From Haloarculaceae archaeon (GTDB lineage Archaea; Halobacteriota; Halobacteria; Halobacteriales; Haloarculaceae): DNA of 52,577 nt. How positions within the stretch are numbered: position 1 is the first letter of the stretch; each line of letters starts with the position of its first letter. A model generated the notes under the pieces. That model worked only from the letters and a program-made list of their open reading frames with translations, had not been told where the DNA came from and did not search any database. The stretch lies in contig JBDGSW010000154.1 in the NCBI GenBank assembly GCA_042217345.1, positions 1-52,577 of the forward strand. The letters run 5' to 3'. This document shows positions 33,688-44,907 of this stretch, piece after piece. The position numbers and the translations under genes are program-made.

Positions 33688-33803
33688 GGCGGTCCCAGGG
33701 CGGTGGCGACGAAAAGCGCGGGGGTCCCGGCGGGGCGGACCGCCGGCCGACGCCGTGATGGAGTGCGAACGTTTATTCGCGCCAGCACGTAGTTTCCCCC
33801 GAC

Positions 33804-35765
<1,962 letters not shown>

Positions 35766-35901
35766 GCGGCCGCCGTCCGTTTCGGAAATCGATGAAATAG
35801 CGAAGCGAGGCCGGACACCTATCAGCACCTATGGGGTATCCTCCCGCGACGTGGGGACCGCCGGTACGCTTTTCCTTCGGACCGCAGTAGACACGCGAAA
35901 C

Positions 35902-38067
35902 ATGACCACACCGCCGGCGACCGAGGGGGCGACGGTCGAACTGACCGAACGCACGTACCGGGCGCTCAGGCGGGCGACCGAGTCCTATCGGGAGGACCTC
36001 GTCCTCCGACTGGGCGCCGAGGCGGGCCTGCGACCGGCCGAGATGGCGCGGCTCCGGCTGAGCGACGTCGAGTCGTTCGTCGCCCGCGGCCGCGAGCACT
36101 ACTTCGCTATCGTCGATTCCGACGAAGCCGACGCCGAGCGCCGGACCGCGTACCTGCCGCCGGCCGTCGAACACGACCTCCGGCGGTACGCGACGACGGC
36201 CGGCGTCGCGGACGGCGAGCGGTTCTTCTCGGTCACGCCGCGGCGCCTGCAGATGCTCGTCTCGGAGGTCGCCGACCGGGCCGCCGACCGGACGGGGATC
36301 GACGAGTTGGGGTCGGTCTCCTCGCGGACGCTCCGGCGGTACTTCGCCCGGCGGCTGCTGGTCGAGGAGGGCGTCGATCCGGCGGTCGTCCGCGCCGTCG
36401 GCGGCTGGCGCCGCCTGGCCAGCCTCGAGCCGTACGTCCTCGAACCGGACCGGGACGTCATCGCCGACGCCTTCGCGGACACGTCGCTGTGGGCGGGCTT
36501 GGGCGACCGCCTTGACGCCGAGGCGGTCGCGCGGGTCGTCGACGAGGCGGCCCTGCCGCTGGTCGTCACGGACGCCGACGACGTGATCGCGTACGCCAAC
36601 GAGCGTTTCGGTAGCGTGACTGGAACCGAAGCCGGGGAGGCCGTCGGCCGCCCGCTCGACCGGTTCGTCGCCGACGGCGAGTGGCGGTCGCCGCGCGGGC
36701 GCGCCGGCGACGATCCGACGGTCGCGGCCGTCACGCTGGTCGGAGCCGACGGCGACGGGTGGCCCGCGCGCTGTCGGGTGGCCCGGGTCGACGGGGCGGA
36801 CGGACGCGGTCGGTCGCTGGTGGTGTTCGACGGTGCGGGCGACGCCACGGCCCCACTCCGCGACGGCACGACCCGGCTCGACGGCGTGCTCGACCGGATC
36901 GCGGCCGTGCGGGACGCGCTGGCGACGGCGTCCACCCGCGAGGAGATCTGCCGAGTCGTGGCCCGGGAACTGACCGACGCCGACGCCTACCGTGCCGCCT
37001 GGGTCGCCGAGGTGACCGGCGACGGCCTGGACGTCCTCGCCGCCGCCGACGGCGACGCCGACGCGTCCCCCCCGACGGCAGTCGGCGGTGCGGTGGCGAC
37101 GGTCGTCGAGACGGGCGCGACGCGTTCGACGCGCGACGTGTCGAGCGGCGGTGAGTTCGCCGACTGGCGCGCGCACGCCGACGCGGCAGGCTACCGGGCG
37201 GCCGCCGTCGTCCCGATCGGCGACGACGGGGCCGTCGAAGCGGTCCTCGGCGTCGGCGCGGCGACCGTCGGCGAGCGCGAGCCGGCGCTGCTCGCCGAAC
37301 TCGGCGCGCACGTCGGGCAGGCGCTGACCGCCGCCGAGCAGCGCAAGCTACTCCTGGCCGACACCACCCTCGAGCTTACCTTCGAGAGCGACGACGAGAC
37401 GGCCGTGTTCGCGGCCGCCTCGCGCGCCCACGACTGCCGCGTCGCGCTCGACGGCGTCGTCCCCGGCGAGCGGGGGACGCTGCTGTACTTCGTCAGGGTC
37501 GCCGACGCCCGCCCCGAGCCGGTCATCGAGTGGGCGACCGACTGCGAGGCCGTCGCCGACGCCCGGCTGTTGCGCGACCGCGGCGAGGAGGCGTTGCTCG
37601 AACTCGGGATCACCGGCCCCGATCCCTCCCACTGCCTGGCACACAGCGGGGCGACGATCCGCGACCTCGTCGCCGCCGACGGGACCGAGCGGATCGTCTG
37701 CGACGTGTCGGCCGACGCCGACGTCCGCGCGCTGGTCGACGACCTCAAGACGTCGTTCCCGGACACCGAACTGCGGACCAAACGCGAGCGCGAGCGCCCG
37801 CCCGAACCGGAGCCGTCGGTCCGGGACGCCCTCCGCGAGTCGCTGACGGACAAGCAGGCAGCCGTCCTGCAGGCGGCGTTCCACGCCGGCTACTTCGAGT
37901 GGCCGCGCGGCAGCACCGCCGAGGAACTGGCCGACTCGATGGGCGTCACCTCCCCCACGTTGCACAACCACCTCCGGCGCGCCCAGCAGAAGCTGCTCTC
38001 GGCGTTCTACGGCGACGGCGAGTCGCGCCGCACGGCCGACGCCTGGCCCGGCGACGACGGTCGCTAA
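35902..38067 (+). CDS. Tyrosine-recombinase-domain / PAS / GAF / Bat / HTH-10 fusion regulator
   Basis: N-terminal GLR..E, SRTLRR, GGW-x8-Y; PAS (YANERF..VTG....EAVG); GAF (YRAAWV, GYRAAAVVPI); C-terminal LTDKQ..VLQAAFHAGYFEWPR.STAEELA..MGVTSPTLHNHLRRAQ. Confidence 0.88.
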   Translation: MTTPPATEGATVELTERTYRALRRATESYREDLVLRLGAEAGLRPAEMARLRLSDVESFVARGREHYFAIVDSDEADAERRTAYLPPAVEHDLRRYATTAGVADGERFFSVTPRRLQMLVSEVADRAADRTGIDELGSVSSRTLRRYFARRLLVEEGVDPAVVRAVGGWRRLASLEPYVLEPDRDVIADAFADTSLWAGLGDRLDAEAVARVVDEAALPLVVTDADDVIAYANERFGSVTGTEAGEAVGRPLDRFVADGEWRSPRGRAGDDPTVAAVTLVGADGDGWPARCRVARVDGADGRGRSLVVFDGAGDATAPLRDGTTRLDGVLDRIAAVRDALATASTREEICRVVARELTDADAYRAAWVAEVTGDGLDVLAAADGDADASPPTAVGGAVATVVETGATRSTRDVSSGGEFADWRAHADAAGYRAAAVVPIGDDGAVEAVLGVGAATVGEREPALLAELGAHVGQALTAAEQRKLLLADTTLELTFESDDETAVFAAASRAHDCRVALDGVVPGERGTLLYFVRVADARPEPVIEWATDCEAVADARLLRDRGEEALLELGITGPDPSHCLAHSGATIRDLVAADGTERIVCDVSADADVRALVDDLKTSFPDTELRTKRERERPPEPEPSVRDALRESLTDKQAAVLQAAFHAGYFEWPRGSTAEELADSMGVTSPTLHNHLRRAQQKLLSAFYGDGESRRTADAWPGDDGR

Positions 38068-38263
38068 CTGTTTAGTGACGCCCGTCTCTCCGGGCGAGAC
38101 GCCCTCTATCCGGACAGTGGGTGTGGTTCCCACACGAACTGGAACGGCGAGTGGGTTGTCGAGCGTGTACGCCGGGCGGATATCTCGGGCGAGGCCGGCT
38201 TTCGCTCTTGTAATAATTAGCTTCGAGACTTAACCGGACGGTGGTGGACGTTCGTGATGGACT

Positions 38264-40246
<1,983 letters not shown>

Positions 40247-40293: not shown

Positions 40294-40920
40294 ATGCCCG
40301 CAGACACTGACACCGGAAATCCCGCACCGCTCGGCCTCGTCGGCTTCGGCCTGACGACGGTCGTACTGAGCACGATCAACGCCGGCTTGCTCCCCTCGGA
40401 GGGCGAGGCCGTCGTCCTGCCGCTGGCGCTGGCGTTCGGCGGCACGATGCAGATCGTCGCCGGCATCCTCGAGTACAAGGAGGGCAACACCTTCGGAACG
40501 GTCGCGTTCAACAGCTACGGCGCTTTCTGGTGGTGGTTCGGCCTGATGTTGATCTTCTCCGGCAACGGGTGGATCAGCCTCGCAGGCGCCGGCACCACCA
40601 TCGGCTTCGCGCTGATCATGTGGGGCGTGTTCACGACCTACATGTGGATCAGCACGTTCCGTCTCAACTGGGCGCTGTGGTCCGTGTTCCTGACGCTGGC
40701 CATCACGTTCTTCCTGCTCGGCTTCGGCGACTACCTCGGCATCGAGTCGCTGGCGCTGGCCGGCGGCTACGTCGGTATCCTGACCGGCCTGCTGGCGATG
40801 TACACCAGCTTCGCCGAAGTCACCAACTGGTCGTTCGACCGCGACGTCCTGCCGATCGGCGGCGCGCCAATCGGCGGCGACGGCGCCGGCGACGACGCCC
40901 GCGTCGAACCCGCGGACTGA
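40294..40920 (+). CDS. satP: Acetate uptake transporter, SatP/GPR1/FUN34/YaaH family
   Basis: Signature NPAPLGL.GF, GG..Q...G, NTFG...F.SYG.FW, six TM segments. Confidence 0.92.
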
Positions 40921-41030
40921 TCGACGGACGGCGGCCGACCGCCGGCCGTTCCGAGGTCGGAAAACCTTTTTCGCGCGACTGCGTGTTTCACGTCCATGGA
41001 CCGCGATTCCGTGGACAGGAGTGGTACGTC

Positions 41031-42581
41031 GTGACGATGGAAGAGCGCGTCGCGGAACTCCGCGAGCGCAAGCGGGAGGCGGAACTGGGCGGCGGCGAGG
41101 ACCGCATCGAGGCCCAGCACGACCGGGGGAAGCTCACCGCCCGCGAGCGCATCGAGTACTTCCTCGACGACGACACGTTCCGCGAGATCGACACCCTCCG
41201 CGAGCACCGCTCGACCAACTTCGACATGGCCGACCGCGAGCTGCCGGGCGACGGCGTCGTCACCGGCTACGGCGAGGTCGACGGCCGGAAGGTGTTCGTC
41301 TTCGCCCACGATTTCACCGTCATGGGTGGCTCGCTCGGCGAGGCGTTCGCCCAGAAGGTCTGTAAGGTGATGGACAAGGCCGTCGAGACCGGCTGTCCGA
41401 TCATCGGCCTCAACGACTCGGCGGGCGCGCGCATCCAGGAGGGCATCGACTCGCTGGCCGGCTACGCCGACATCTTCCACCGCAACCAGCTGGCCTCCGG
41501 CGTCGTCCCGCAGATCTCGGCCATCATGGGGCCGTGCGCCGGCGGCGCCGTTTACTCGCCGGCGATCACCGACTTCGTCATGATGGTCCAGGACACCAGC
41601 CACATGTTCATCACCGGCCCGGACGTCATCGAGACCGTCACCGGCGAGGAAGTCGGCTTCGAGGAACTGGGCGGCGCCCAGACCCACGCCGCGACCTCGG
41701 GCGTCTCGCACTTCACGGCCGCCGCCGAGGAGGAGGCCCTGGACGACATCAAGTACCTCCTCTCCTTTCTCCCGCAGAACAACGTCGAGAACCCCCCGCG
41801 GGTCGAGCCCTGGGACGACCCCGAGCGCGAGCCCGACGACCTCCTGGACGTCGTCCCCGACGAGCCCCAGAAGCCCTACGACATGCGCCAGGTGATCGAG
41901 CGCGTCGCCGACGAGAACTCCTTCTTCGAGGTGATGGAGGAGTACGCGCGCAACATCACGATCGGGTTCGCCCGCATGGACGGCCACTCCGTCGGCGTCG
42001 TGGGCAACAACCCCCACGTCAACGCCGGCACGCTCGACATCGACGCCTCGATGAAGGGCGCGCGCTTCGTCCGCTTTTGCGACGCGTTCAACATCCCGAT
42101 CCTCACCTTCGTGGACGTCCCCGGGTTCATGCCCGGCACCGACCAGGAGCACAACGGGATCATCAAGCACGGCGCGAAGCTGCTGTACGCCTACTCCGAG
42201 GCGACGGTGCCGCTGCTGACGGTCATCACCCGGAAGGCCTACGGCGGCGCCTACGACGTCATGGCCTCGAAACACGTCGGCGCGGACATGAACTACGCCT
42301 GGCCCACCGCCGAGATCGCCGTCATGGGGCCGAAGGGCGCGGTGAACGTCCTCTACGACGACGAGCTCGCCGACGCCGAGGACGTCGAGGCCCGGCGCCA
42401 GCAGCTCATCGACGAGTACCGAGACGCCTTCGCCAACCCCTACATCGCCGCCGAGCGCGGGTTCGTCGACGACGTGCTCGAACCCCAGGAAACGCGCGCG
42501 CGGCTCATCTCCGACCTGGAGATGGTCCGCAGCAAGCGCAAGGACCACCCCGACCGCAAACACGGCAACATCCCGCTCTGA
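41031..42581 (+). CDS. pccB: Propionyl/acyl-CoA carboxylase carboxyltransferase subunit
   Basis: [64 protein letters not shown]; start is GTG 41031 or ATG 41037. Confidence 0.95.
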
Positions 42582-42582
42582 G

Positions 42583-42885
42583 ATGACCGAGCCCGCACCC
42601 GCCCCGACCGTCGACCCCGACCTGCTCGCCGCCGTCGCCGAGGCGCTGCCCGACGCGGCCGCAGACGAGGCGGCCGCCATCGCGGTGGCGGTCGGCGCGC
42701 ACCTCCGGGATCGCGAACTCGCCGCCGCGGCCGCCGCGGCCGGCGACGGGGATCGCCCGAACTGGCGGGGCGAGCGCTGGGCGTTCGCCGCGCGCCTCAA
42801 GCGCAAGCGCCGCCGGTCGGTGCGCGTCCCCGAGGACGCCCCCGACGACCCCTGGACGACCGCCGGTCGCACCGACTGGATGTAA
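42583..42885 (+). CDS. pccX: Acyl-CoA carboxylase small (epsilon-like) subunit
   Basis: [28 protein letters not shown]; immediately follows pccB. Confidence 0.75.
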
Positions 42886-43038
42886 CCCCCGCGGCGGTCG
42901 AGTGCCCTCGCGACGGCGGTCCGGGCCGATGCGGCCTGCCGACGAAGGTAGCGGAGAGCGCCGCGGCGGGCGGCGCGCCCAGGGCCCGAACTGCCGCGGT
43001 CGGATACTTTTATGGGGCGACTCGCGGTAAACGCGGGT

Positions 43039-44907
<1,869 letters not shown>

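Follow-up and report, generated by a model that had tools for sequence, protein, structure and literature searches.

A tyrosine-recombinase fold at the head of a haloarchaeal Bat/HTH-10 regulator: a predicted two-headed controller of an acs cluster

Why would a regulator gene that stands between two acs paralogues begin with the catalytic fold of a tyrosine recombinase? The question is raised by a 52,577-nucleotide stretch of DNA from a Haloarculaceae archaeon (contig JBDGSW010000154.1), analysed here as a whole and referred to below as the window, in which positions 35902-38067 of the forward strand form an open frame without stops that encodes 721 amino acids. Pfam matches above their cut-offs assign a Phage_integrase domain to residues 17-179 (32.8 bits; cut-off 27.1), a GAF domain, the presumed sensor, to residues 344-475 (36931-37326), a BAT domain to residues 487-640 (37360-37821) and an HTH_10 DNA-binding domain, which is the best conserved part of the protein, to residues 648-699 (37843-37998). 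A preliminary description of this DNA had read the series behind the recombinase domain as PAS-GAF-Bat-HTH10; the last three domains stand, while the PAS-like region (residues ~210-309, 36529-36828) stays below its Pfam cut-off (23.1 against 27, E 9e-5) and is otherwise visible as a PAS-like sheet in the structure model. Our homologue search gave 128 full-length matches, 120 of which were listed and provide the residue counts given below; because PAS was found in only 70 of these 120 homologues, we regard it as optional. With BAT and HTH_10 joined to GAF/PAS sensors, the protein has the domain make-up of the Bat/HTH-10 activators, and its composition (PF00589, PF15915 and PF04967, with or without GAF_2) assigns it, by domain list, to fam30-04. 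This family, defined as Phage_integrase, BAT and HTH_10 with GAF_2 in some members, was catalogued by Badel, Da Cunha and Oberto in 2021, as given in the consulted part of that paper (PMC8371274), and the architecture is thus already known.

The fusion is genuine and widespread in Halobacteria. A frameshift or assembly artefact joining two genes, which the preliminary description had named as a possible undoing of its reading, is ruled out by the 128 full-length homologues together with one contig of sequencing run X1, which covers 36254-37920 with 0 differences, though X1 is possibly the source sample and so not independent. All homologues that bear organism names are haloarchaeal, and one source annotation (P0074) reads 'integrase family protein / sensor/bat box HTH-10 family transcription regulator'. 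A tally of 300 of 401 genomes overestimates the fused family because standalone recombinases were counted in; in a check on this tally, the long fused frame was present in 20 of 30 weaker-scoring genomes.

The N-terminal domain has the tyrosine recombinase superfamily fold, as first proposed from the arrangement of its motifs. A fold search with the whole protein gave PAS/GAF proteins only, and the N-terminal domain (residues 10-195, 35929-36486) was therefore folded alone, yielding a model with a pLDDT of 95.8. Its best match among solved structures is XerA (5hxy; Z 18.4, rmsd 3.8, 168 residues aligned), and it also matches IntI4, Cre and other tyrosine recombinase catalytic domains. The structural match begins at XerA residue ~101, in agreement with the earlier statement that the core-binding domain is absent. 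The translation likewise places R44, R142, R145, W169 and Y178 as first described and contains E47, and since residues 1-200 hold no Lys at all, the beta-hairpin Lys is missing. R142 occupies the position of the box-II His.

Across the family, the catalytic residues have fared very unequally. The preliminary description had called for the conservation of R44, R145, W169 and Y178, and of synteny with acs, to be scored: R145 and W169 are each present in 119 of the 120 listed homologues and the acs synteny is constant, but R44 is found in 102 and the nucleophile Tyr in only 70. In a second set of 61 genomic loci, E47 and W169 are retained in all 61 and the Tyr in 37, with at least 9 switches between Tyr and other residues on the tree. 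The box-II His occurs in 4/120 listed homologues and 3/61 loci, and a GK[DN] Lys motif in 1/120 and 0/61. Four of the 120 listed homologues retain R-H-R-W-Y, although the displayed hairpin segment has no Lys in any of them. In the H. volcanii orthologue, R44 is replaced by Thr, the box-II His by Arg and Y178 by Leu, and the Lys is missing as well. Loss of the box-II His would not by itself be decisive against activity, because some active archaeal families replace that residue. Judged by the residue pattern as a whole, however, the recombinase domain is almost certainly catalytically dead, and the retained Arg and Trp would be compatible with phosphate binding and with maintenance of the fold. 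One of the two functions first envisaged, a ligand-gated switch for DNA cleavage or recombination, was said at the time to fall if Y178 proved not to be conserved and its change to Phe had no effect; the conservation counts go against it.

A different part of the domain is strictly conserved. R114, R115, Q117 and M118 of the segment RRLQM (residues 114-118, 36241-36255) are invariant in all 120 listed homologues and variable in standalone relatives. This segment starts a long helix equivalent to helix J of Xer and Cre, the helix that recognises DNA in the major groove.

The standalone relatives were seen by profile search, a single-sequence search for short relatives having given only 6 matches and missed the family. 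They are GGW recombinases of ~200 residues without a core-binding domain, ~40% identical to the fused domain; R-H-R-W-Y is present in 51/64 and the hairpin Lys in 49/64. Many lie on haloarchaeal plasmids such as pHS1 and pNG200, annotated as 'site-specific integrase' (matches in 76 plasmid records, some of them to fused genes). In a quick tree of 83 rows, the 31 sampled fused domains form one clade (SH-aLRT 98) among the standalone GGW recombinases. Ahead of 43 of 54 standalone genes, from three clades, a core-like site of the form TT-N7/8-AA with at least 7 of 10 complementary arm bases is located at -99 to -154, and most of the genes also carry a degenerate copy, judged by eye, between TATA and ATG. 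The arms of the core-like sites are clade-specific and the recognition helix also varies by clade, a covariation drawn from 3-4 related clades. The standalone proteins are likely self-regulated plasmid resolvases; our literature search found no study of them. In these relatives (L092-L098 and L122-L168), the predicted core site is at about -100 to -130, with arms of 10-11 bp and a spacer of 7-8 bp, and the promoter copy at about -25 from the ATG. Some standalone proteins (P0181, P0185, P0186, P0192, P0204, P0222 and P0232) likewise lack some catalytic residues, four of them adjoining the fused clade with weak support, and these are possibly further recombinase-derived repressors.

Both neighbours of the regulator gene exceed the acetate--CoA ligase cut-offs and are thus acs paralogues, as had been noted. 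The upstream copy (33804-35765, forward strand) is of the acs8 type, is co-inherited with the regulator and has diverged motifs, including the P-loop Lys; the downstream copy (38264-40246, forward strand), of the acs7/acs1 type, is the predicted target of the regulator. It is followed by a gene for an AceTr/SatP acetate uptake transporter (40294-40920, forward strand; NF038013, 175 bits against a cut-off of 50). The stretch 40294-44907 contains, after the AceTr gene, genes resembling a carboxyltransferase and a biotin carboxylase, presumably of an acyl-CoA carboxylase, and carboxylase-like genes are near the cluster in a few loci of the same genus. Of 60 top-scoring loci picked from different genera, every one has an acs gene downstream of the regulator and 58 have one upstream, always on the same strand; in a more divergent set of additional fused loci, acs is on both sides in 20 of 20. 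Among 22 genomes that lack the fused gene, 20 gave an acs match, one each. In six loci (L055, L058, L060, L061, L068 and L069), a second cluster type was observed, whose downstream acs is ~58% identical to that of the window, with a 17-bp O2 spacer (see below) in three and site B absent in two.

H. volcanii pHV4 has the same order, with acs8, the regulator and acs7, then the actP transporter operon. In the consulted part of the published work on this organism, cells growing on acetate transcribe the acs7-actP operon, and of the two ligases ACS7 is active whereas ACS8 is unable to sustain growth on acetate (PMC7746861), and the excerpted account of H. mediterranei does not have the upstream paralogue HFX_5129 among the functional enzymes (PMC11784441). 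The P-loop Lys is kept in 36/59 upstream acs copies versus 60/60 downstream copies; the upstream copies retain the C-terminal PKTxSGK motif and have lost many other conserved positions. Some positions are conserved in the upstream copies only, e.g. K202, D206, A208, D632, G643 and E644. This pattern suggests a non-enzymatic or partner role for the upstream paralogue. Upstream of this gene, at 33767-33777, many loci share the promoter word GAACGTTTATT, probably a BRE/TATA element, and no operator was seen there.

The promoter of the regulator gene itself contains two copies of an inverted repeat, TTCG-N16-CGAA in the window. The first, predicted operator O1 (35781-35804), lies just 3' of the upstream acs stop codon, at the position taken by the core-like site in the standalone plasmid relatives; the second, predicted operator O2 (35876-35899), lies 3' of a T-rich, TATA-like box at 35869-35875 and 5' of the ATG, where it would overlie the point at which a leaderless transcript starts. 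Across the promoter regions of the 61 loci, TTCG-N15/16-CGAA has 116 matches, against a shuffle mean of 5.0 and a maximum of 13. Two copies are present in 53/61 loci, with equal spacers in 44 of the 53, and in the more divergent set 16/20 loci have two copies and 20/20 at least one. In one lineage (L051-L082, mostly family f5) both copies have a 15-bp spacer, against 16 bp elsewhere, which suggests co-evolution with the geometry of a dimer. The pair is kept irrespective of the nucleophile, in 21/24 loci without Tyr versus 32/37 with it. Helical phasing between O1 and O2 is weak (p about 0.02, with related loci not independent). The inner TT..AA of the core-like sites occurs in 0/53 fused O1 copies, and the complementarity of the inner bases is near chance (0.23-0.42). 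The central 7-8 bp of O1 and O2 are identical in 0/44 loci in direct and 1/44 in inverted orientation, so the two are not recombination partners, and we reject an invertible promoter between them, given this non-homology of the spacers and the constant gene order.

A second pair of sites precedes the downstream acs. Site A (38064-38075) is a CTAR-N4-YTAG palindrome over the regulator's stop codon, and site B (38208-38220, forward strand) is a degenerate copy of it and a predicted activator site; 9 bp separate its end from the TATA-like box of acs (38230-38233), and activators usually bind on this side of TATA. Site B is found at this 9-bp spacing in 58/61 loci (shuffle mean 3.3) and in 20/20 of the more divergent set; a perfect site A further upstream is found in 36/61 (shuffle mean 0.5) and 3/20, respectively. 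Before the acs genes of the 20 genomes that have such a gene without the regulator, each site was found in 0/20, 7 of these genes being close acs orthologues of 73-79% identity. In 31/36 loci the distance between A and B deviates by no more than 2 bp from a multiple of 11; over the 21 distinct values p is about 0.0006, related loci not being independent. In the genome G000, a perfect palindrome lies 3' of 6/12 Bat-type genes versus 0/30 other HTH_10 genes, and at 6 of 11 CTAR-N4-YTAG palindromes a TATA-like word stands at a distance of exactly 9 bp, versus 0.27% per position by chance. This presence at other Bat-type loci, and at a fixed distance from TATA-like words, connects the motif with HTH_10 and not with the recombinase domain, and makes CTAR-N4-YTAG a candidate for a site through which Bat/HTH-10 paralogues activate in general. 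The six TATA-linked palindromes are C4:11377, C4:22902, C35:14086, C40:8636, C43:561 and C139:4843, and three of them precede DUF7344 genes.

These observations are, in our judgement, probably best explained by a two-headed regulator, in which the dead recombinase domain would repress the regulator's own gene while the GAF-Bat-HTH10 part would activate the downstream acs. We infer from co-occurrence and position which domain reads which site. In an ancestor, a plasmid resolvase gene may have become fused to a Bat-type regulator, bringing along its core site for recombination and the copy that overlaps the promoter; since the standalone genes carry sites at the same positions with intact inner arms, gene and sites would have been taken up together. 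Catalysis would then have been lost and the inner arm bases beside the cut site would have decayed, leaving only the outer TTCG/CGAA bases to be read by the RRxQM helix. In the present protein, the N-terminal domain would bind both inherited repeats, a dimer on O2 blocking initiation, and pairing of O1 with O2 could form a loop of ~96 bp. GAF would sense a signal of acetate metabolism, upon which HTH_10 dimers at site B would recruit TBP/TFB, with the distal site A, a whole number of helical turns away, assisting in some lineages. Of the two functions first envisaged for the integrase, domestication as a DNA-binding module within a regulator of acs is the one supported here. A bolder version, which we offer as possible if doubtful, is that a whole plasmid resolution module (resolvase gene, site and operator) was captured once in early Halobacteria as a ready feedback loop; the dead resolvase would pair both sites as in a synapse, looping the promoter without cutting, and the degenerate upstream ACS would be a partner that senses acetate or acetyl-adenylate and switches between self-repression and acs activation.

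The two-headed model has to be weighed against readings that allot the same sites differently. The recombinase-fold domain might be an oligomerisation or structural module only, with another transcription factor binding the TTCG-N15/16-CGAA pair. The repeat has only 8 informative bases, and single matches with N16 are frequent across a genome (134 in G000); the pair, however, occupies the same two positions as the sites of the standalone relatives, is found among the 42 HTH_10 genes of G000 at the fused gene only (with one single match elsewhere), and accompanies a putative recognition helix that is invariant in the fused family alone, and we therefore consider this reading unlikely. That the assignments are swapped or shared, with HTH_10 reading the TTCG pair and the recombinase domain CTAR-N4-YTAG, or that the protein represses acs, would fit the co-occurrence of the two site sets with the protein as a whole. 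Against it, the palindrome lies 3' of 5 other Bat-type genes in G000, all without a recombinase domain, and sits upstream of TATA, the usual place for an activator, whereas O2 is downstream of TATA; this reading appears improbable.

It is very improbable, in our view, that the protein is a signal-gated active recombinase which inverts or excises the promoter segment between O1 and O2, or nicks DNA, even if only in the lineages that keep both His and Tyr. R145 and W169 are nearly invariant, the Tyr persists in many homologues and R-H-R-W-Y in a few, and the promoter is flanked by two core-like sites. Nevertheless, the Lys is absent and the Tyr has been lost repeatedly, the spacers of O1 and O2 are non-homologous and their inner arms decayed, and gene order is constant in 80 loci. 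The H. volcanii locus retains O1, O2, A and B and everything else intact although its protein is without all four of the first Arg, Lys, His and Tyr.

The two site sets O1/O2 and A/B are new here, and neither the sites nor the plasmid ancestry were found in our literature searches, which also returned no regulator of the acetate-induced acs-transporter cluster. The analysis thus provides for this cluster a candidate regulator, its sites defined exactly and open to mutation in H. volcanii (pHV4), a genetically tractable host. It also offers an unusually traceable exaptation, in which the path from plasmid recombinase to host regulator can be retraced for the enzyme and for its DNA sites alike. 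Beyond this locus, it proposes how Bat/HTH-10 paralogues may activate, with a candidate motif and its geometry, and it predicts core sites for a widespread haloarchaeal recombinase family without a core-binding domain.

Comparison with known systems helps to place the protein. The consulted portion of the fam30-04 description gives a domain list only, with no catalysis, synteny, sites, origin or function (PMC8371274); the earlier remark that no functional characterisation of the architecture is known holds to the extent that none was found in searches of the openly accessible literature, although the architecture itself was already catalogued. The label 'SNJ2-like' had to be abandoned and SNJ2-type membership is ruled out: those integrases have Gly or Ala at the Glu-I position and Ala or Val at the His/Trp-III position, according to the excerpted source (PMC5861418), whereas E47 and W169 are universal in the fused loci. 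XerA provides the nearest solved structure but possesses a core-binding domain, and membership in that family is excluded by this difference and by a NF040815 score of 37.1 against a cut-off of 220 bits. The standalone plasmid recombinases are alike in lacking a core-binding domain and in having two sites in their own promoter at the same positions; they differ in that most keep R-K-H-R-W-Y and that their inner arms are conserved.

The closest functional parallel is found in MrpR/SroF, the master repressors of SPbeta-like phages, which in the consulted part of the source have a tyrosine-recombinase fold, have lost recombination and act as site-specific repressors, MrpR retaining its Tyr for stability (PMC10516654). 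Structures of this type match the N-domain model with Z 13.1 (8a0a) and 14.9 (9rd5). MrpR/SroF, however, are free-standing phage proteins that have retained the core-binding domain, whereas the window protein has no core-binding domain, is fused to GAF-Bat-HTH10 and belongs to a host metabolic cluster. The missing domain and the host acs cluster rule out membership in the MrpR/SroF family, which therefore only works alike, and we infer that the fused domain arose independently. With the Bat (bacterio-opsin activator) family, which acts through an upstream activator sequence, the protein shares GAF/PAS sensors and a C-terminal HTH, as described in the consulted parts of the Bat literature (PMC1447603, PMC1502140), and the conserved site B stands where an activator would bind; it differs in its predicted acs target and in its additional recombinase-derived, predicted DNA-binding head.
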